DNA from: a virus
Lineage: Duplodnaviria > Heunggongvirae > Uroviricota > Caudoviricetes
Length of the DNA stretch: 18,384 nucleotides
Virus record (IMG/VR): IMGVR_UViG_2645727539_000015
Strand: one strand, 5' to 3'
Below the pieces are notes generated by a model. The model was not told the origin of the DNA and ran no database searches. It saw nothing but the letters and a program-made list of their open reading frames with translations. A program made the position numbers and the translations under genes. Of this stretch, positions 2,010 to 12,552 are shown in pieces (position 1 is the stretch's first letter; each line of letters opens with the position of its first letter).

Positions 2010-2085
2010 GGCCCTTTAGCTCAGTGGTGAGAGCGAGCGACTCATAATCGCCAGGTCGCTGGTTCAAATCCAGCAAGGGCCACCA
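2010..2085 (+). tRNA. tRNA, anticodon CAU (Ile2-lysidine type or Met), 76 nt
   Basis: Manual cloverleaf: acceptor GGCCCTT/AAGGGCC, D-stem GCTC/GAGC, anticodon loop CTCATAA, T-arm GCTGG-TTCAAAT-CCAGC, encoded CCA. One A-C mismatch at the top of the anticodon stem. Confidence 0.85.
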
Positions 2086-2092
2086 TCACATA

Positions 2093-2169
2093 CCGCCATT
2101 AGCTCATCGGGATAGAGCGCCAGCCTTCGAAGCTGGTTGCGCGGGGTTCGAGACCTCGATGGCGGTCCA
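2093..2169 (+). tRNA. tRNA-Arg, anticodon UCG, 77 nt
   Basis: Acceptor CCGCCAT/ATGGCGG, D-stem GCTC/GAGC, anticodon stem CCAGC/GCTGG with loop CTTCGAA, T-arm CGGGG-TTCGAGA-CCTCG (one G-U pair), encoded CCA. Confidence 0.8.
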
Positions 2170-2182
2170 TTATCCGTACCCT

Positions 2183-2259
2183 GCGTTGTTAGCTCAGCCG
2201 GACAGAGCAATTGCCTTCTAAGCAATCGGTCACTGGTTCGAATCCAGTACAACGCGCCA
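2183..2259 (+). tRNA. tRNA-Arg, anticodon UCU (rare AGA/AGG codons), 77 nt
   Basis: Acceptor GCGTTGT/ACAACGC, D-stem GCTC/GAGC, anticodon stem ATTGC/GCAAT with loop CTTCTAA, T-arm ACTGG-TTCGAAT-CCAGT, encoded CCA. Confidence 0.85.
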
Positions 2260-2428: not shown

Positions 2429-2860
2429 ATGTTTGGAATCTTCAAAAAGAAAACCCGCAGAGCGGCAGCGGAAATTAAAAAGTTTGAAAAACGCGATCTG
2501 GCCCAGGCGGTGATTAACGCCGCATACCTGGTGGCTTATGCCGATGGTGAATGTGAGGCTTCCGAGAAAGCGAAGATCGAACAGGTATTACGTAACCAGC
2601 CCGCCTTGTCCGCGTTTACGTCAGAAATTAATGCGATTGGCGCAACCATCACTGGTCAGCTTGACACCAACTTTAAAATTGGTCGTCGTGCGGCGTTACG
2701 TGAGATCGAGGATGTGAAACACGATATGCGAGAAGCGGAAGATGTGCTGGATGTGGCGGTGGCCATTGCGGAATCAGATGGCGAAATTGAGCCTGAAGAG
2801 CGCAAGGTGCTGGAAGAGATAGCCGGTGTTCTGGGCCTTCGTCTGGAGAATCACCTGTGA
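2429..2860 (+). CDS. TerB-like (tellurite-resistance TerB domain family) protein, 143 aa
   Basis: ATG 2429 with AAAGGA 6-7 nt upstream. Two copies of the TerB-type signature hydrophobic-A-x-A-D/S-G-E (AYLVAYADGECEASE and VAIAESDGEIEPEE) in a helical, acidic protein. The track ORF start at 2357 has no RBS. Confidence 0.6.
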   Translation: MFGIFKKKTRRAAAEIKKFEKRDLAQAVINAAYLVAYADGECEASEKAKIEQVLRNQPALSAFTSEINAIGATITGQLDTNFKIGRRAALREIEDVKHDMREAEDVLDVAVAIAESDGEIEPEERKVLEEIAGVLGLRLENHL

Positions 2861-3021
2861 CGGTAAAACTGCGCCTGGCCATTGTGGTAGTTCTGCTGTT
2901 TCTTGTCGTGATGGTGGACTTCAGCAGCCGGATAATGTCAGTGCTGGCAGATGGGATGCTGGTGGCTGGTGTTGTGGTTGTTGTTTTCCCGTTGCTGAAA
3001 AAGAAAACAACAGGTGGTTAG
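2857..3021 (+). CDS. possible small membrane peptide (54 aa), start overlapping the TerB-like stop
   Basis: GTG 2857 overlaps stop TGA 2858-2860 (GTGA); GGAGAA lies 7 nt upstream. Translation VTVKLRLAIVVVLLFLVVMVDF...GMLVAGVVVVVFPLLKKKTTGG has two hydrophobic segments and a basic C-terminus. Absent from the ORF track; the overlapping track frame 2826..3125 is Trp/Cys-rich and looks non-coding. Confidence 0.3.
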   Translation: MTVKLRLAIVVVLLFLVVMVDFSSRIMSVLADGMLVAGVVVVVFPLLKKKTTGG

Positions 3022-3263
3022 CAGGGTATCAGTTAGCCGGCGAAATTTTTAAATACCTCACAATTCAGCAAGTTTATGATTGTCTGGCTGACTGCGAATT
3101 TGTTAAAAATCGCGTCGCATGGTGAATCCCCCTCAGCGGCGGGGCATATCAGTACAGGTGTTTTCGTTTAGCCTTATCCTTTCTGTGCGGGTTCAGGTAC
3201 TGATACTGAACTCACCGGGAGGCACCCGGCACCATGCAGTATACAGAGATTAGGCATATCACC

Positions 3264-3289
3264 AGCCCCCTCTTCGGAGGGGGCTTTTT
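3264..3289 (+). terminator. rho-independent terminator (9-bp stem, UUCG tetraloop, T5)
   Basis: AGCCCCCTC-TTCG-GAGGGGGCT followed by TTTTT 3285-3289. Confidence 0.6.
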
Positions 3290-3386
3290 ACATGCAAAAA
3301 AAGCCCGCGTAGGGGGCGGGCGGTAAGAAATAAAACAAAACGTGAAGAAAATTATTCAGCTATTGGATAATACCTGAGGATTATGA

Positions 3387-3418
3387 GGCTGCGCAACTGC
3401 GCGGCCTTTTTCGTTTTT
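3387..3418 (+). terminator. rho-independent terminator (8-bp GC stem, loop AACT, T5-CG-T5)
   Basis: GGCTGCGC-AACT-GCGCGGCC (one G-U) followed by TTTTTCGTTTTT, about 80 nt upstream of the esterase start. Confidence 0.6.
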
Positions 3419-3497
3419 ACTGGCAGTTGTCTTTTGTGTTTTCAGACTTCAGTCAGTCCTTATCTGATTCAACCCACTATCCCGGCCGGGAGGATTC

Positions 3498-5411
3498 ATG
3501 GCATTTAAACATTATGATGTGGTCAGGGCTGCGTCGCCTTCAGACCTTGCGGAGCGACTGACACAAAAACTGAAGGAAGGCTGGCAGCCGTTTGGCAGCC
3601 CGGTCGCCATTACCCCTTATACCCTGATGCAGGCGATTGCCGCAGAAGGGGATGTCACCACGCCTGTCGTGGTGACACCGGAGGAAGGCGGTGCGGTGGT
3701 GAGCGATCCGACCCGTGAGCCTGAATATTACTATGTGCTGGTCACCGCAGGTCAGTCCAACAATATGGCAACCGGCGAAGGTATGCCCCTGCCTGACAGC
3801 TACGACCGTCCCGATCCACGCATTAAGCAGCTGGCCCGCCGCAGTGTGGTCCGACCGGGTGGTGCTGCCTGTAAATACAACGATGTGATTGAGGCCGATC
3901 ACTGTCTCCATGACGTTGAAGACATGAGTGCCAAAAATCACCCCAACGCGGACCTTTCCCGTGGTCAGTATGGTTGTGTCGGGCACGGCCTGCATATTGC
4001 CAAACGTCTTCTGCCCTATATTCCGGTTAATGCGGGGATCCTGATTGTGCCGTGCAGTCGTGGTGGCTCTGCGTTTACCGATCGTGATGAGGGTACCTAT
4101 AACCCGGAGACGGGGGCAACAGCGGATTCCTCCCGCTGGGGTGTGGGTAAACCGTTGTACATGGATTTAATTGCCCGCACGAAGGCGGCCCTTGAAAAGA
4201 ATCCGAAAAACGTCCTGCTGGCCGTGTACTGGATGCAGGGCGAGGGTGACTGTATGTCTTCAGGTTACACGGGGCATCCGGCGTTGTTTACGGCCATGGT
4301 GAAACAGTTCCGTACCGATCTAGCCGCGTATGCCGGTCAGTGCCTGGGCGGCGATGCGGCCCGTGTACCCTGGGTATGTGGTGACACCACCTTCTGGTGG
4401 AAGCAACAGTACCCGACACAATACAGCCTGGTTTATGGCGCGTACCGTAAAAACAGTGAGCCGAATGTGCATTTTGTCGAACTCATGAAGGATGAGACCG
4501 GTGCGAATGTTCCGACCAATAACCCGGCAGAAGATCCGGATGTGCCGGAAGCAAATTATTACGGTGCAGCATCACGCACGGCGGGTAACTGGACGAACCC
4601 GACACGCGCCATGCATTTCAGTTCCTGGGCCCGTCGCGGCATCCTGCCGGACCGTATAGCCACCGCAATCCTGACCCATGCAGGGCGTAACGGACCGTTC
4701 CTTGCCGGTGGAGATATAACGGAAAACTATCCGGAACCGGCAAAACCGAAGAGTAACGTTACCACCCTGTACAGCGGTGCAGAAAGTGAAGGTGCTTATG
4801 CCGAACAGGGCTGGACGCTGAGCGAAGGTAAGGCGGAAGTGGTACAGGATGAAAGCAGTGCTTCCGGACGGGCGCTGAAACTGAGCCAGGATGAAGCAAT
4901 GAACCTGAAGCTGACCCGTGAAGTGGCAAATGCGGCGGAACTGCTGAAAAACGGCGGTAAAATTACCTGTCGTTTTAAAATACCGGGAAGTGCGAACGGA
5001 AAACAGATAGCCCTGGCGATGTATCTGCAGCTGAAGGAAAGCGATATCCCTGAAGGTGTGGAATTTGCCAATAAGGCGGACGGTACCCATCCGTTCCTGG
5101 TGGCGTTCTATCTGCAGACAGAAACGGATGGCAAACTCAGTCTGATGCACAATGGTGCAGCGCAGACGCGTGTTGCGGGATACGGTACGCTGAACAGTGA
5201 ATGGCACACACTGGAGCTGGTATATCCGGGAGGAGGCCAGAACACGGTGACGCCGTATGTTGATACGGTAAAAGCTCCGACCACACAGCTGTCCTGGTTT
5301 AAATATGAAGGACAGGAGAACACGCTTATTCTGACGGATGCGTCGAATACAGCCACGTATGAAACGTGGATTGACGCGCTGACAGTGGAAGTAAACAGTC
5401 CGGCAGCCTGA
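3498..5411 (+). CDS. nanS-p: prophage NanS-p-type sialate (9-O-acetyl-Neu5Ac) O-acetylesterase, 637 aa
   Basis: ATG 3498 with GGGAGGA 5 nt upstream. N-terminus MAFKHYDVVRAASPSDLAERL is DUF1737-like, followed by a sialate-O-acetylesterase/SGNH-type region (YYYVLVTAGQSNNMATGEG) and a C-terminal domain. The position after the tRNA triplet matches the large esterase ORF of Stx-converting phages as I recall it. Confidence 0.85.
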   Translation: MAFKHYDVVRAASPSDLAERLTQKLKEGWQPFGSPVAITPYTLMQAIAAEGDVTTPVVVTPEEGGAVVSDPTREPEYYYVLVTAGQSNNMATGEGMPLPDSYDRPDPRIKQLARRSVVRPGGAACKYNDVIEADHCLHDVEDMSAKNHPNADLSRGQYGCVGHGLHIAKRLLPYIPVNAGILIVPCSRGGSAFTDRDEGTYNPETGATADSSRWGVGKPLYMDLIARTKAALEKNPKNVLLAVYWMQGEGDCMSSGYTGHPALFTAMVKQFRTDLAAYAGQCLGGDAARVPWVCGDTTFWWKQQYPTQYSLVYGAYRKNSEPNVHFVELMKDETGANVPTNNPAEDPDVPEANYYGAASRTAGNWTNPTRAMHFSSWARRGILPDRIATAILTHAGRNGPFLAGGDITENYPEPAKPKSNVTTLYSGAESEGAYAEQGWTLSEGKAEVVQDESSASGRALKLSQDEAMNLKLTREVANAAELLKNGGKITCRFKIPGSANGKQIALAMYLQLKESDIPEGVEFANKADGTHPFLVAFYLQTETDGKLSLMHNGAAQTRVAGYGTLNSEWHTLELVYPGGGQNTVTPYVDTVKAPTTQLSWFKYEGQENTLILTDASNTATYETWIDALTVEVNSPAA

Positions 5412-5528
5412 CGGTAAGCAAAAAAAAGCCCCTCCGCCATGCGGAGGGGAAGAAGTTAACCATCAAACGAATATCTATGGAATTTGCATTCTGACGTTTT
5501 TCATCATTATGCACAATACGGTGGAACG

Positions 5529-5693
5529 ATGACTTTTATTCAACAATTCCTGCTGTACTTCTGTACGGTGGTGTGTGTGCTGGTGCTGCTTTCCGGTGGT
5601 TTTAAAGCTGTCCGTAATTTCTGGCGTAGCCAGATTGACAAAAGGGCCGCTGAAAAAATCAGTGCCGGGCAGCAGGACAGTTCCCTTCAGTAA
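5529..5693 (+). CDS. small single-pass membrane protein (54 aa)
   Basis: ATG 5529 with GGTGGA upstream; MTFIQQFLLYFCTVVCVLVLLSGGFKAVRNFWRSQIDKR has one hydrophobic helix then a charged tail. The track ORF start at 5484 lacks an RBS. Confidence 0.4.
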   Translation: MTFIQQFLLYFCTVVCVLVLLSGGFKAVRNFWRSQIDKRAAEKISAGQQDSSLQ

Positions 5694-5718
5694 CCTTTCC
5701 CGTAAACGAGAAAATCTC

Positions 5719-5952
5719 ATGAGTGATATTAATAAACTGGTCACTGCAGAAGCAGTGAAGGATGCGCTGCGCTCTGAAGAAGTGAGCAGCGTCCTGAAAC
5801 AAAAAATTCGTGCAACCTTTGAGTCACAGATAGATGCGGAGGTGGATGCGATTCTGGCAGAGCTGACAGGTGCGCCAGCTGAAGCGTCAGGGGGCTTGCC
5901 TGAGCCGGAACAACCGGCAGAAACGGCGGCTGACCCATTTATGCCTCAGTAA
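5719..5952 (+). CDS. hypothetical acidic small protein (77 aa)
   Basis: ATG 5719 inside track ORF 5575..5952; hydrophilic, Glu/Asp/Ala-rich; compact spacing with neighbouring genes. Function unknown. Confidence 0.4.
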
Positions 5953-6032
5953 GGGGTTATATGCAGGTCACCGGTCAGGAGGCGGGTGACCCTGTTGTTT
6001 CTGCGGACTTCCGTCAGTCGGGAGGCGAGGGC

Positions 6033-6248
6033 ATGTATCAGATGGAAAAAATAGCAACGGGTGTGTCGTACAGCACATCAGCGGCGGGGACGGGATACTG
6101 GTTGTTTCAGATACTGGATAATGTCACGCCCTCACAGTGGACGGCTATTGGAGTGCTGGGGAGTCTGTTTTTTGGTTTGCTGACATACCTCACCAATCTG
6201 TATTTCAAAATCAGAGAGGACCGGCGTAAGGCAGCCCGGGGAGAGTGA
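6033..6248 (+). CDS. S: pinholin (phage 21 S21-like class II holin) with dual-start motif MYQMEK
   Basis: [23 protein letters not shown]...[22 protein letters not shown] closely matches the phage 21 pinholin as I recall it. GGAGG sits 7 nt before ATG 6033 and a second ATG at 6042 gives the antiholin/holin pair. The track ORF start at 5961 is an in-frame leader. Confidence 0.9.
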
Positions 6249-6252
6249 GACG

Positions 6253-6786
6253 GTGAGTCAGAAAGTCCGTTATGGTTTATCGGCTGCGGTTCTGGCGCTG
6301 ATTGCCGCAGGTGCTTCTGCGCCTGACATTCTTGACCAGTTTCTGGATGAAAAGGAAGGTAACCACACCACGGCATACCGTGATGGTGCGGGTATCTGGA
6401 CCATCTGCCGTGGTGCCATTCTGGTGGATGGTAAACCTGTTGTTCCGGGGATGAAGTTGTCGAAGGAAAAATGCGACCAGGTTAATGGCATTGAACGTGA
6501 TAAGGCGCTGGCATGGGTGGAGAAAAACATCAGAGTGCCACTGACTGAACCCCAGAAAGCGGGGATCGCGTCATTCTGCCCGTACAACATTGGCCCCGGT
6601 AAGTGTTTTCCGTCGACGTTTTATAAACGAATTAATGCAGGTGATCGAAAAGGTGCCTGCGAAGCGATTCGCTGGTGGATTAAGGACGGTGGCAGAGACT
6701 GCCGTATCCGCTCAAACAACTGCTACGGTCAGGTATCCCGTCGTGACCAGGAAAGTGCGCTGGCGTGCTGGGGCATCGACAGATAG
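6253..6786 (+). CDS. R: SAR (signal-anchor-release) endolysin, T4-lysozyme-like
   Basis: GTG start 4 nt after the holin stop; N-terminal Gly/Ala-rich weak TM segment YGLSAAVLALIAAGASA; catalytic E/D/T spacing (EGNH..RDGAG..WTICRG) typical of the family and of pinholin partners. Confidence 0.85.
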   Translation: MSQKVRYGLSAAVLALIAAGASAPDILDQFLDEKEGNHTTAYRDGAGIWTICRGAILVDGKPVVPGMKLSKEKCDQVNGIERDKALAWVEKNIRVPLTEPQKAGIASFCPYNIGPGKCFPSTFYKRINAGDRKGACEAIRWWIKDGGRDCRIRSNNCYGQVSRRDQESALACWGIDR

Positions 6787-7780: not shown

Positions 7781-7912
7781 ATGTCAGACAAACTCATAAT
7801 GCTGGCGAAGGGCCTTTGTATAATCGTCGGTATTTCATTTTCACTAATGCTGGTTGCTCTTTTTCTTTCCCTGGGCTGGATGATGTTGTCTTCGTCGGGG
7901 ATGCTGGGGTGA
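7781..7912 (+). CDS. possible tiny membrane peptide (43 aa)
   Basis: ATG 7781 with AAGGGG 5 nt upstream; [43 protein letters not shown]; stop is followed directly by the Rz RBS. Confidence 0.3.
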
Positions 7913-7919
7913 GGGGGAT

Positions 7920-8414
7920 ATGAACCGCGTTCTGTGTGTGGTCATCATTGCCCTGCTGGTGGCCTGTGGTGCGCTTAGTCTGGGGCTGAATCATTACCGC
8001 GATAACGCCATTACCTACAAAGCGCAGCGCGATAAAAAAGTCAGTGAGCTGAAACTGGCAAACGCAACCATTACTGATATGCAGCAGCGCCAGCGTGATG
8101 TTGCTGTGCTCGATGCAAAATACTCGAGGGAATTAGCCGATGCGAGAGCTGAAAATGAAACTCTGCGTGCTGATGTTGCCGCTGGTCGTAAGCGCCTGCG
8201 GATCAACGCCACCTGCTCAGGTACCGTGCGTGAAGCCACCGGCACCTCCGGCGTGGATAATGCAACCGGCCCCCGATTGGCAGACACCGCTGAACGGGAT
8301 TATTTCATCCTCAGAGAACGGTTGATGACAATGCAGAAGCAGCTGGAAGGGGCGCAGGAATATATCCGCACTCAGTGCACTAAGCTGGCTTTTTATTATC
8401 CGGAGGATACATGA
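7920..8414 (+). CDS. Rz: i-spanin Rz
   Basis: N-terminal TM then [45 protein letters not shown]...[22 protein letters not shown], very close to lambda Rz; GAGGGGG SD. Confidence 0.85.
8140..8325 (+). CDS. Rz1: o-spanin Rz1 lipoprotein, embedded in the +1 frame of Rz
   Basis: [20 protein letters not shown] lipobox followed by proline-rich [32 protein letters not shown], lambda Rz1-like; lies wholly inside Rz. Confidence 0.8.
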
Positions 8415-10330: not shown

Positions 10331-10894
10331 GTGCTGACAACGCAAAAACGAAAATTTGCGCTGGCGCTCATGTCCGGGAAAAACAAAACAGCGTCAGCCA
10401 TTGCCGCCGGTTATTCGGCGAAGACCGCCAGGGTTAAAGGCTCGCAGCTGGCAAAAGATCCGGAGGTGCTCGCGTTTATAGCCCGTAAACAGTCCGAAAC
10501 GGTGGAGGTGGATGAGGTTCCTGTTTACCGGCAGAAAAAATCAGAGCAGGAGGATAAACCCCGTCGCCGTGAGGTGGCTGCAATACCACAGCCGGACGAA
10601 ACAAATCCGGAGATGCCACCGCCCGTGGTGATATCTCCTGGTATTGAGTATATGGAGGACGGTCTTCCCGATCCGGTGAAAGCGATGGGGCGTCTTCTGG
10701 TGGAGAACATTAATACCGACCCCAGGCTGGCGCTGGATGCGGCTTATAAGCTGGCGCAGTTCACGCACCACAAAAAAGGGGATGCCGGTAAAAAATCGGC
10801 AAAAGGTGACGCGGCGAAAAAAGCGGCTAACCGTTTTGCGGTGCCACTACCACCCCGACTGGTGGTGAATAATGATAATGAGGGCAACGGATGA
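10331..10894 (+). CDS. terminase small subunit
   Basis: N-terminal HTH region KRKFALALMSGKNKTASAIAAGYSAKTARVKGSQLAKDPEV typical of the Terminase_2 family; GTG start after GGAGGAGG; stop overlaps the terL start (ATGA). Confidence 0.7.
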   Translation: MLTTQKRKFALALMSGKNKTASAIAAGYSAKTARVKGSQLAKDPEVLAFIARKQSETVEVDEVPVYRQKKSEQEDKPRRREVAAIPQPDETNPEMPPPVVISPGIEYMEDGLPDPVKAMGRLLVENINTDPRLALDAAYKLAQFTHHKKGDAGKKSAKGDAAKKAANRFAVPLPPRLVVNNDNEGNG

Positions 10895-12552
10895 TACCTG
10901 TGTGGAGCACGGCCTGCCCGGACTGGGCAGAGCGCCTGAAAAAGGGGCTGTCGATTATTCCGGCCCCGATTTATCCGGATCAGGCTGCACATGCACTGGC
11001 GATTTTTAAACAACTGCGGATTGTGGATGCACCGGGCAGCCCGACGTTCGGGGAGTCCTGCGCACAGTGGGTGTTTGACCTGGTGGCGGCCCTGTTTGGC
11101 TCCTACGATGCGCAGACTGGTGTACGCCATATCAAGGAAGTTTTTATCCTTATCCCCAAGAAAAACTCGAAGTCCACGCTGGCCGCAGGGATCATGATGA
11201 CTGCACTGTTACTGAACTGGCGGCAGGCGGCGGGCTACACGATTCTGGCCCCGACAGTGGAGGTGGCAGCCAACGCCTTCAACCCTGCCAGGGATATGGT
11301 ACGACGGGACGATGATCTGGATGACCTCTGTCAGGTGCAGACACATATCCGGACCATCACCCACCGGGTGACAGACACCACCCTGAAGGTGGTGGCAGCC
11401 GATCCGAATACGGTGTCCGGTATCAAGTCCGTGGGTACGCTGATTGATGAGCTGTGGCTGTTTGGCAAGCAGTACAAGGCGGAGGACATGTTACGTGAAG
11501 CCATAGGTGGCCTTGCCTCCCGCCCGGAAGGGTTTGTGGTGTATACGACCACCCAGTCGAATGAACCGCCCGCCGGGGTGTTCAGACAGAAACTGCAGTA
11601 CGCCCGGGATGTGCGCGACGGCAAAATTCATGATCCGCACTTTCTGCCGGTGATCTTTGAACACCCTCCTGAAATGGTGGAAAGCGGGGCTCACCTGCTG
11701 ATGGAAAACCTCGCCATGGTCAATCCGAATCTCGGCTATTCAGTGGATGAGGCCTTTCTGTACCGGGAGTATCGAAAAGCACGGGAAGCCGGTGAAGAGA
11801 CATTCCGGGGCTTCATGTCAAAACACGCCAATGTGGAAATTGGTCTTGCCCTGCGCTCTGACCGCTGGGCGGGGGCGGATTTCTGGGAAGAGCAGGGCCG
11901 TTGTATCAGCCTGGACGATATCCTGCTGCGTGCTGATGTGGTGACAGTGGGGATTGACGGCGGAGGGCTGGATGATCTGCTGGGGATGTATGTGATTGGG
12001 CGTGACCGGGAGACCCGCGAATGGCTGGGCTGGGGCCATGCCTGGGCGCATGAAACCGCGGTGGTCCGACGGAAGAGCGAGGCGTCCCGGTTTCAGGATC
12101 TTGTTGCCTGTGGAGATATGACCATTGTCCGGCGTGTCGGGGATGACACGGCGGAAGTGGCGGAATATGTGCGTCGCATTCATGAGGCTGAGTTACTGGA
12201 CCATATCGGTATTGACCCGTCAGGGGTGGGGCAGATTCTGGATTCACTGGCGGAAGCCGGGATCCCTGAAGGAATTGTGGTGGGGATAAGCCAGGGCTGG
12301 AAACTGGGTGGGGCCATCAAAACCACCGAGCGCAAACTGGCTGAAGGGGTGCTGATTCACGGTGACCAGCCCCTGATGGCCTGGTGTGTCGGCAATGCCC
12401 GGGTGGAGCCTAAAGGTAACGCCATCCTTATTACCAAACAGGCCAGCGGACGGGGGAAAATTGACCCGCTGATGGCGCTCTTCAATGCGGTATCCCTGAT
12501 GTCCCTGAATCCGGAGCCCAAAAAGAAAGAATATGCGGTTTTTTTCATATAA
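10891..12552 (+). CDS. terminase large subunit (553 aa)
   Basis: Length, position and conserved blocks (FILIPKKNSKSTLAAGIMM Walker-A-like region; C-terminal nuclease region VTVGIDGGGLDDL...IGIDPSG) match phage large terminases. Confidence 0.9.
   Translation: MIPVWSTACPDWAERLKKGLSIIPAPIYPDQAAHALAIFKQLRIVDAPGSPTFGESCAQWVFDLVAALFGSYDAQTGVRHIKEVFILIPKKNSKSTLAAGIMMTALLLNWRQAAGYTILAPTVEVAANAFNPARDMVRRDDDLDDLCQVQTHIRTITHRVTDTTLKVVAADPNTVSGIKSVGTLIDELWLFGKQYKAEDMLREAIGGLASRPEGFVVYTTTQSNEPPAGVFRQKLQYARDVRDGKIHDPHFLPVIFEHPPEMVESGAHLLMENLAMVNPNLGYSVDEAFLYREYRKAREAGEETFRGFMSKHANVEIGLALRSDRWAGADFWEEQGRCISLDDILLRADVVTVGIDGGGLDDLLGMYVIGRDRETREWLGWGHAWAHETAVVRRKSEASRFQDLVACGDMTIVRRVGDDTAEVAEYVRRIHEAELLDHIGIDPSGVGQILDSLAEAGIPEGIVVGISQGWKLGGAIKTTERKLAEGVLIHGDQPLMAWCVGNARVEPKGNAILITKQASGRGKIDPLMALFNAVSLMSLNPEPKKKEYAVFFI

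Follow-up and report, generated by a model that had tools for sequence, protein, structure and literature searches.

Among the described lysis systems closest to the one considered here are the T4 RI/RIII lysis-inhibition pair and the S21-71 antiholin, which share the concept of a holin modulated by a small membrane protein and a small helical protein of the cytoplasm. RI works by way of its periplasmic domain. Members of the S21 family have a built-in dual-start antiholin (the dual start of the phage 21 holin is M-K-S-M), and the Lys of S21-71 is what makes that form an antiholin. This study concerns two small genes, of the DUF1378 and DUF826 families, that lie between an esterase gene and a pinholin gene in the IMG/VR virus record IMGVR_UViG_2645727539_000015, a stretch of 18,384 nucleotides that is referred to throughout as the window. 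A late factor that is not a holin was found in 2022 in phage Mu, where gp25 (releasin, DUF2730) is needed for release of the signal-anchor-release (SAR) endolysin (PMC9239132). By comparing the window with related loci, we find that DUF1378 and DUF826 are separable units and that each of them recurs at the edge of lysis cassettes. Our tentative reading, to which we give a probability of about 35%, is that both are accessories that tune lysis.

The two families are not new and the finding is in that respect an ordinary one: both are already catalogued, have no assigned function and are common in prophages of the Shiga toxin (Stx) type. The window is 100% identical to an IMG/VR contig and has 95.8% DNA identity to a prophage of E. 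coli UTAK-6, in which the Prokaryotic Genome Annotation Pipeline (PGAP) labels the two products 'DUF1378 family protein' and 'DUF826 domain-containing protein'. By tblastn, DUF1378 was found in 309 and DUF826 in 307 GenBank phage records, nearly all of them Stx-converting or related lambdoid coliphages; 933W carries DUF826 as L0106, and Sakai Sp5 carries the pair as ECs_1210/ECs_1211. In the one paper found that names both families, certain genomes are noted to carry, between nanS-p and S, open reading frames (ORFs) with a DUF826 or DUF1378 domain and without known function (PMC10462455). In a microarray analysis of an uninduced culture, ECs1211 was 3.3-fold lower at the exponential-to-stationary transition (PMC2241611), which is weak evidence of transcription. 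A preliminary description of the window, made from its sequence alone, had called the two genes uncharacterised; this stands for their function and fails for their identity, as both fall in named families already annotated in Stx phages and E. coli prophages. The search for conservation and synteny in related prophages that it proposed found both families conserved, with the pair present in about 300 sequenced Stx-type phages. What is added here is a comparative map of where DUF1378 and DUF826 occur and a correction of the over-long DUF826 gene models of 933W (L0106) and PGAP.

Results

Relatives of both genes recur at the edges of lysis cassettes

The product of the first gene (ORF1) matches Pfam DUF1378 (PF07125) over residues 1-52 of 54, with 96.2 bits against a cut-off of 25 (E = 1.3e-27), and PHROG 494 (E = 1e-29). 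That of the second (ORF2) matches Pfam DUF826 (PF05696) with 80 bits against a cut-off of 25 (E = 1.5e-22) and PHROG 311 (E = 4.9e-27). Three variants of DUF1378 and distant variants of DUF826 served as seeds to gather loci with relatives from IMG/VR, GTDB genomes and GenBank phages, and 199 non-redundant loci were classified; the distant members score above the family thresholds. Only 6 loci came from the GTDB scan, for which few degenerate patterns could be constructed, and a third homologue search gave only E. coli-type members among the matches listed.

The order esterase - DUF1378 - DUF826 - S21 holin, which is that of the window (arrangement A), was found in 74 loci and in 14 more that are cut by contig ends, and the esterase was the 5' neighbour in every lambdoid locus with both genes (synteny across 80+ loci). 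In BUCT709-like phages (arrangement B, 21 loci), DUF1378 follows the cassette in the order S21 holin - SAR lysozyme - Rz/Rz1 - DUF1378 - tailspike, with neither esterase nor DUF826; its start codon overlaps the Rz stop codon (ATGA) and is served by a strong AGGAG Shine-Dalgarno sequence. The DUF1378 start likewise overlaps the Rz stop in arrangement B' (Rosenbergiella prophages and one IMG/VR contig, 4 loci), where the cassette is otherwise unrelated to that of B and reads Phage_holin_8 - Phage_holin_3_7 - GH19 endolysin - Rz/Rz1 - DUF1378, followed by HNH and terminase genes. DUF826 occurs without DUF1378 in arrangement E (44 loci), lysozyme or GH19 endolysin - Rz/Rz1 - (cargo) - DUF826 - small terminase subunit, in cassettes of the HP1 or GH19 type; the small terminase subunit gene is the next gene in 26 of these loci.

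The remaining arrangements are those of Mu-like prophages. At their right end, 18 loci have esterase-like - DUF1378 - DUF826 (arrangement C) with no holin nearby, and the next recognised gene in some of them encodes a C5 methyltransferase. About 10 loci, from Mu-like prophages of Mixta, Erwinia and Cedecea, have tail fibre - tail-fibre assembly protein - (DUF826) - DUF1378 - (acyltransferase) - Dam methylase (arrangement D), with DUF826 preceding DUF1378 in the three loci that hold both. In all, 148 of the 199 loci have a holin gene within 1.3 kb downstream, or an Rz or endolysin gene within 1.3 kb upstream, of one or both genes. From arrangements A to E it follows that the two genes do not form an obligate pair, that each is found again and again at a cassette edge, either before S or after Rz, and that both can also live far from lysis genes.

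DUF1378 was found only in enterobacterial genomes, in two phages listed for Stenotrophomonas and in unassigned IMG/VR contigs. One of the two, 'Stenotrophomonas' phage BUCT709 (OM816835, positions 2721-4153), has a cassette of the window type together with DUF1378, including an S21-like holin and a SAR lysozyme with a visibly similar N-terminal region, and this cassette with DUF1378 is common to 24 IMG/VR contigs.

Features of the DUF1378 and DUF826 proteins

Both genes are under purifying selection (dN/dS, the ratio of nonsynonymous to synonymous substitution rates, about 0.2-0.25): across related loci, the median pairwise value was 0.21 for DUF1378 (68 distinct nucleotide variants) and, for DUF826 (61 distinct nucleotide variants), 0.25 in the core (residues 1-52) and 0.51 in the tail. 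All of the homologues collected, 186 of 186 for DUF1378 and 138 of 138 for DUF826, start at the equivalent ATG, which in the window DUF1378 gene is preceded by a GGTGGA Shine-Dalgarno sequence. With the Pfam and PHROG matches, these results bear out the preliminary description, which took the two for real genes lying between an esterase and a pinholin. Its account of the proteins also agrees with ours: it had a single-pass membrane protein of 54 aa, for which we find one hydrophobic stretch and a single helix modelled by AlphaFold2 (AF2), and an acidic, predicted-helical protein of 77 aa, for which we find an isoelectric point (pI) of 4.16 and an AF2 model with two helices and a disordered tail.

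DUF1378 proteins have 2-6 residues followed by a hydrophobic stretch of about 19-23 residues (approximately residues 3-25 in the window), and in every family member the 15 residues after this stretch carry a net charge of +2 to +5. On the positive-inside rule, this charge distribution predicts a single transmembrane segment with the N-terminus outside, in the periplasm, and the C-terminus inside, as came out of the topology prediction that the preliminary description had suggested. AF2 gave one continuous helix over residues 2-51 (predicted local distance difference test, pLDDT, 67), of which the C-terminal part is a predicted basic cytoplasmic helix (tail of about 30 aa, pI 10.3). The alignments have invariant L9, Y10, G23, G24 and R29, with S22 also invariant within the E. 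coli group, and the S-G-G is followed by an aromatic residue, F in the window and Y in most relatives. ORF1 thus has the core features of its family: a length of about 50-64 aa, one N-terminal hydrophobic helix and the pattern L-Y...S-G-G...R. It resembles ECs_1210 of Sakai Sp5 and other Stx-phage forms in the transmembrane segment, the LY...SGG...R motif and the position between nanS-p and S, but belongs to a less common variant: its identity to the usual Stx-phage forms is 73-81% and its C-terminus is shorter (54 versus 59-64 aa). The search of PDB sequence profiles with DUF1378 gave no significant relative; there were three non-significant hits, to translocon-associated protein gamma, at E = 0.51.

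For DUF826, AF2 placed helices at residues 2-17 and 20-50 and left the tail (51-77) disordered, with pLDDT below 50. The acidity is family-wide (pI about 4.1), and the tail, rich in Glu, Pro and Asp, ranges from 4 to 75 residues across the family. The window protein is like 933W L0106 and Sakai Sp5 ECs_1211 in its 52-residue helical core and its position just upstream of S, and differs from the Stx-phage forms in its shorter tail and in overall identity (54-69%). Most lambdoid and Mu-like DUF826 proteins (for instance those of loci L067, L119 and L164) end in a Met-rich tripeptide, MMM, MML or TML; the window protein ends in FMPQ, and distant members lack the tail. It is possible that the Met-rich end is a short docking motif for a partner. 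Fold recognition gave nothing below E of about 3 with Foldseek against BFVD and PDB and nothing among PDB sequence profiles, and an exhaustive profile search of 1.84 billion representatives found no domain fusions of DUF826, only 49 clusters (at 50% identity) of proteins of at most 138 aa.

Public gene models extend DUF826 in the 5' direction across DUF1378 in another frame, to 148 aa in 933W L0106 and to 111 aa in the PGAP annotation of UTAK-6 (ABH545_RS13760), and in the window the DUF826 frame is likewise open from a GTG at 5575 (5575-5952). We rejected the long model as an annotation artefact, because the extension is not conserved in diverged homologues and the conserved ATG is the start codon of every homologue. 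Only within the closely related lambdoid group is the upstream frame open; Mu-like loci have it in another register, with an open stretch of 81 nt, and in the diverged L143 and L174 loci just 15 nt are open. Furthermore, the Mu-like copies have a strong AAGGAGG just 5' of the conserved ATG. Judged by these comparisons, the short model of 77 aa appears to be the correct one.

Organization and transcription of the window locus

The features of the locus are collected in Table 1. The domains of the esterase and the PF04971 match of the pinholin agree with the neighbours named in the preliminary description.

Table 1. Features of the window discussed in the text, in order of position
Feature	Position	Strand	Basis or remarks
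Three tRNA genes	2010-2256	+	Rfam
STnc100 RNA	3087-3295	+	Rfam, 159.9 bits; just 5' of the esterase gene
NanS-p-type sialate O-acetylesterase, 637 aa	3498-5411	+	DUF1737, SASA and DUF6645 domains
Candidate small RNA (sRNA)	5421-5492	-	Intrinsic terminator and promoter-like element
DUF1378-family gene (ORF1)	5529-5693	+	ATG start, 54 aa
DUF826-family gene (ORF2)	5719-5952	+	ATG start, 77 aa
Stable hairpin GGUCACC...GGUGACC, then a U-rich stretch	5966-5991	+	Between DUF826 stop and pinholin start
S21-family class II holin (pinholin)	6033-6248	+	PF04971, 109.6 bits; dual start M-Y-Q-M at 6033-6044
Phage lysozyme, SAR-type endolysin	6253-6786	+	PF00959, PHROG 7; N-terminal hydrophobic Ala/Gly-rich segment
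43-aa ORF, probable membrane protein	7781-7912	+	Directly 5' of Rz; PHROG 4906 (unknown function), E = 4e-20
61-aa ORF, putative Rz1	8140-8325	+	Embedded in Rz (7920-8414), +1 frame; lipobox LVVSAC

The esterase stop is separated from ORF1 by 117 nt, ORF1 from ORF2 by 25 nt, and ORF2 from the pinholin start by 80 nt. A terminator scan found no plus-strand terminator in 5300-6300, and no promoter was found from the esterase to the holin in the window; DUF1378 and DUF826 should therefore share a transcript with S and R, and the pinholin is probably co-transcribed with them. In 933W and UTAK-6 the block with the two genes lies downstream of Q/pR', and in three contexts no sigma-70-like promoter above background was found 5' of DUF1378 and DUF826.

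The leader of 96 nt that contains the hairpin between DUF826 and the pinholin gene folds as a whole with -34.9 kcal/mol (z = -1.8), and the hairpin might affect the choice of start codon or be a weak attenuator. The window holin and those of about 100 related loci that carry the DUF1378/DUF826 pair begin M-[YN]-Q-M-E-K. The dual start is M-K-M in holins of the BUCT709 type, and holins of the type found in prophage PP2 of enteropathogenic E. coli (EPEC) have lost the first ATG (I-H-Q-M). As a correlate of DUF1378/DUF826 presence, the type of dual start was rejected as non-discriminating, since M-K-M loci also carry DUF1378.

On the 3' side of the pinholin come the lysozyme, an Ant-like protein and Rz. 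The ORF of 43 aa that directly precedes Rz has a strongly hydrophobic segment and its product is probably a membrane protein; a different ORF of similar kind, of 45 aa (PHROG 6632), occupies the matching spot in L199-type phages. Thus lysis cassettes hold more small uncharacterised proteins than the two considered here. The lipobox-bearing ORF within Rz appears to be the expected Rz1 o-spanin gene.

A candidate antisense sRNA upstream of DUF1378

The 117-nt spacer upstream of DUF1378 contains a strong minus-strand intrinsic terminator that abuts the esterase stop, with a stem at 5449-5429 (8 G-C pairs) followed by T8. An A-run and a GC hairpin are found at the equivalent place in every esterase-linked locus, lambdoid or Mu-like, with stem sequences that vary by locus (CCCCTCCGC; CCGCCAG; GCCGCCGG; TCCCGCC). 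Nearly all esterase-linked loci also have a minus-strand promoter, TTGAC(A/T/G)-17/18-TA(A/G)AAA, that begins 21-29 nt from the DUF1378 ATG, and the predicted minus-strand transcript is about 70-95 nt long. In the window the promoter-like element is degenerate and weak (TTGTGC-17-CAGAAT) and overlaps the DUF1378 5' leader; the predicted RNA of 72 nt folds with -21.3 kcal/mol (z = -2.0). The esterase-free DUF1378 loci have neither terminator nor promoter, and the unit thus tracks the esterase and not DUF1378.

In place and strand the candidate corresponds to EcOnc52, PasA and PasC, Hfq-associated sRNAs that lie next to the esterase stop and converge with the esterase. PasA and PasC of EPEC, like EcOnc51 and EcOnc52 of enterohaemorrhagic E. 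coli (EHEC), are minus-strand RNAs that measure about 80 nt and contain a GC hairpin and U-tract. In Sakai Sp4, minus-strand EcOnc52 spans 1181998-1182075 and the end of the esterase gene ECs_1088 is at 1182008; in EPEC E2348/69, PasA and PasC lie between esterase and holin, and the 'minor' PasA 3' end coincides with the esterase stop (PMC8550237 Table S6; bioRxiv 10.64898/2026.05.13.724894). The spacer RNA matched no Rfam family. By blastn PasA matched only four loci, all with an extra esterase fragment, and neither the window nor the common lambdoid or Mu-like loci; PasC was compared with the spacer by eye only. The loci with canonical PasA (EPEC PP2 and Sakai Sp12) have the order esterase - sRNA - holin and differ from the window in having no DUF1378 and no DUF826.

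As the candidate RNA would be fully complementary to the late transcript just 5' of the DUF1378 ribosome-binding site, it may damp basal downstream expression in lysogens. On the other side of the esterase the window has an STnc100 RNA (Table 1), of a family that has been related to PasD (bioRxiv 10.64898/2026.05.13.724894). Together with the spacer unit this gives the window a layout of PasD-like sRNA - esterase - antisense sRNA - lysis genes, as described for EPEC and EHEC prophages.

Discussion

The reading that we put at about one chance in three is that DUF1378 and DUF826 are accessories, expressed late and not essential, through which lysis is tuned at the inner membrane. It is suggested by the recurrence at cassette edges, the ATGA overlap with Rz, the placing of DUF826 between Rz and terminase genes, the late-operon position and the gp25-like predicted topology of DUF1378. 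Their synthesis would coincide with that of the pinholin, SAR endolysin and spanins, and both proteins would act at the cytoplasmic face of the inner membrane on the timing or efficiency of lysis. DUF1378 would insert N-out/C-in with a conserved small or polar helix face (Y10, C12/T13, S22-G23-G24); among the partners that we infer, its transmembrane helix could pack against the second transmembrane domain (TMD2) of the pinholin, against the SAR domain or against the anchor of the i-spanin. DUF826, as a soluble acidic two-helix protein, could bind electrostatically to the basic tail of DUF1378 or to the highly basic C-terminal tail of the holin. A minus-strand sRNA antisense to the late transcript would likewise fit genes that are silent in lysogens.

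Several observations weigh against this reading. Cassette edges are module junctions at which unrelated cargo gathers, so adjacency to lysis genes is weak evidence. Many near-identical prophages enter the locus counts, which vary with the seeds used, and the independent arrangements number only about six. Both genes also occur at the Mu-like right end, after the tail-fibre assembly gene and beside methyltransferase or acyltransferase cargo, with no lysis gene within 4-5 kb on each side. Moreover, closely related cassettes work without DUF1378 and DUF826 (EPEC PP2, Sakai Sp12), and many S21-type cassettes have neither. No known antiholin family (T4 RI and RIII, P1 LydB) or other lysis family was recognized: at E up to 0.1 neither protein matched a PHROG of the lysis category, and all PHROG matches were to families of unknown function apart from a sub-threshold one of DUF826 to PHROG 426 ('terminase small subunit'). 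The releasin of Mu was considered as a homologue and rejected, with an hhalign probability of 0.2% for both DUF1378 and DUF826 against gp25 and no hit to Pfam PF10805; in gp25 the cytoplasmic domain comprises 73 aa and is anionic, whereas the DUF1378 tail has about 30 aa and is basic. Finally, we found no functional study in the literature on L0106, ECs1210, ECs1211, DUF1378 or DUF826. The role in lysis timing raised by the preliminary description is thus helped by relatives that recur, alone, at cassette edges in other phage groups, and set back by the Mu-like sites, the cassettes that lack both genes and the want of homology to known regulators.

Nearly as likely as a role in lysis is that the two genes are cargo ('morons') inserted at module junctions, downstream of pR', after Rz or after tail-fibre genes, with products unrelated to lysis that act on the host or on competing phages, for example through a block of superinfection at the membrane. 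Every position that we observed is a classic cargo site, and the neighbours (NanS-p, an acyltransferase, Dam and C5 methyltransferases, lipoproteins and a Tlde1/YkuD-like protein) are of the corresponding kind. The genes are dispensable and patchy, and the families are very narrow, DUF826 with its 49 clusters and DUF1378 with the limited range given above. However, the searches detected no own promoter for the genes, the start of DUF1378 overlaps the Rz stop in two groups of phages, and late-only expression would be unexpected for a gene of lysogenic conversion or exclusion. Membership of a defence system was rejected, as five family members had no PADLOC hit at E up to 1. For superinfection exclusion in particular, which the preliminary description had also put forward, we found no positive support, given these PADLOC results, the failure to detect a separate promoter and the late-operon location. 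If the genes are only cargo, the finding remains an ordinary one.

The other explanations that we considered are each improbable. That the esterase, DUF1378 and DUF826 form a functional unit, for instance in membrane association or release of NanS-p, would account for the way in which the trio and the antisense sRNA unit are kept as a block in lambdoid phages and at Mu-like right ends despite only about 50-67% protein identity; but each of the two small genes is also found with no esterase present, in about 85 loci, and esterase genes occur without them in EPEC PP2 and PP5 and Sakai Sp4 and Sp12. Slightly less probable still is that DUF826 marks the start of the packaging or head module and has nothing to do with lysis or with DUF1378. 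It lies directly 5' of the small terminase subunit gene in 26 non-redundant loci (64 nt upstream in L199), and one GenBank record, that of PhiR12_5, names it 'head completion protein', a label that we regard as unsupported. The match to PHROG 426 (E = 0.066) points the same way and is below significance. In the window and about 100 lambdoid loci, however, DUF826 is about 4 kb 5' of the presumed terminase ORFs (10331-12552 in the window), with the whole lysis cassette in between, and it is an acidic protein (pI about 4.1) with no detectable relative in fold or sequence. Very unlikely, finally, is that DUF1378 is a membrane peptide of the type I toxin kind, checked by a divergent antisense sRNA. 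The tisB/istR and zorO/orzO loci combine a toxin gene with a divergent sRNA in a comparable layout, and DUF1378, small and hydrophobic, has just 5' of its start a divergent sRNA unit of about 70-95 nt. Yet the unit is present where DUF1378 is absent and is missing from all esterase-free DUF1378 loci, and no separate promoter was detected for DUF1378, which is elsewhere translationally coupled to Rz.

To return to a role in lysis, its interest lies in where the genes are. In most Stx-converting phages DUF1378 and DUF826 sit in the late operon, between the toxin or esterase cargo and the lysis genes, and the timing of lysis sets the amount of Shiga toxin that a lysogen releases; their position is thus one that controls toxin release. 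A stronger version, which we consider doubtful, is that DUF1378, with or without DUF826, represents a new kind of lysis regulator that acts in trans, in the manner of an antiholin or a releasin, and sets the lysis time of pinholin/SAR-endolysin/spanin cassettes. Such a regulator could compensate for the M-Y-Q-M dual start, which has no antiholin Lys, and in Stx phages it would also set the amounts of Shiga toxin and NanS-p that are released.

Among the known systems, the T4 RI/RIII pair resembles DUF1378 and DUF826 in concept only: there is no homology, and DUF1378 has no periplasmic domain. The holins that accompany the pair differ from S21-71 in that their three-residue extension, M-[YN]-Q, has no Lys. 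Mu gp25, like DUF1378 in its predicted topology, has a tiny periplasmic N-terminus (about 4 residues), one N-terminal transmembrane segment and a cytoplasmic C-terminus, and it is a small late protein, not a holin, encoded near a SAR endolysin and spanins (PMC9239132). Unlike in gp25, the acidic part is here a separate protein, DUF826, which is often absent. If lysis is in fact tuned by either DUF1378 or DUF826, that protein would add a new regulator of toxin release and, after the Mu releasin, a further lysis protein outside the holin, endolysin and spanin classes.

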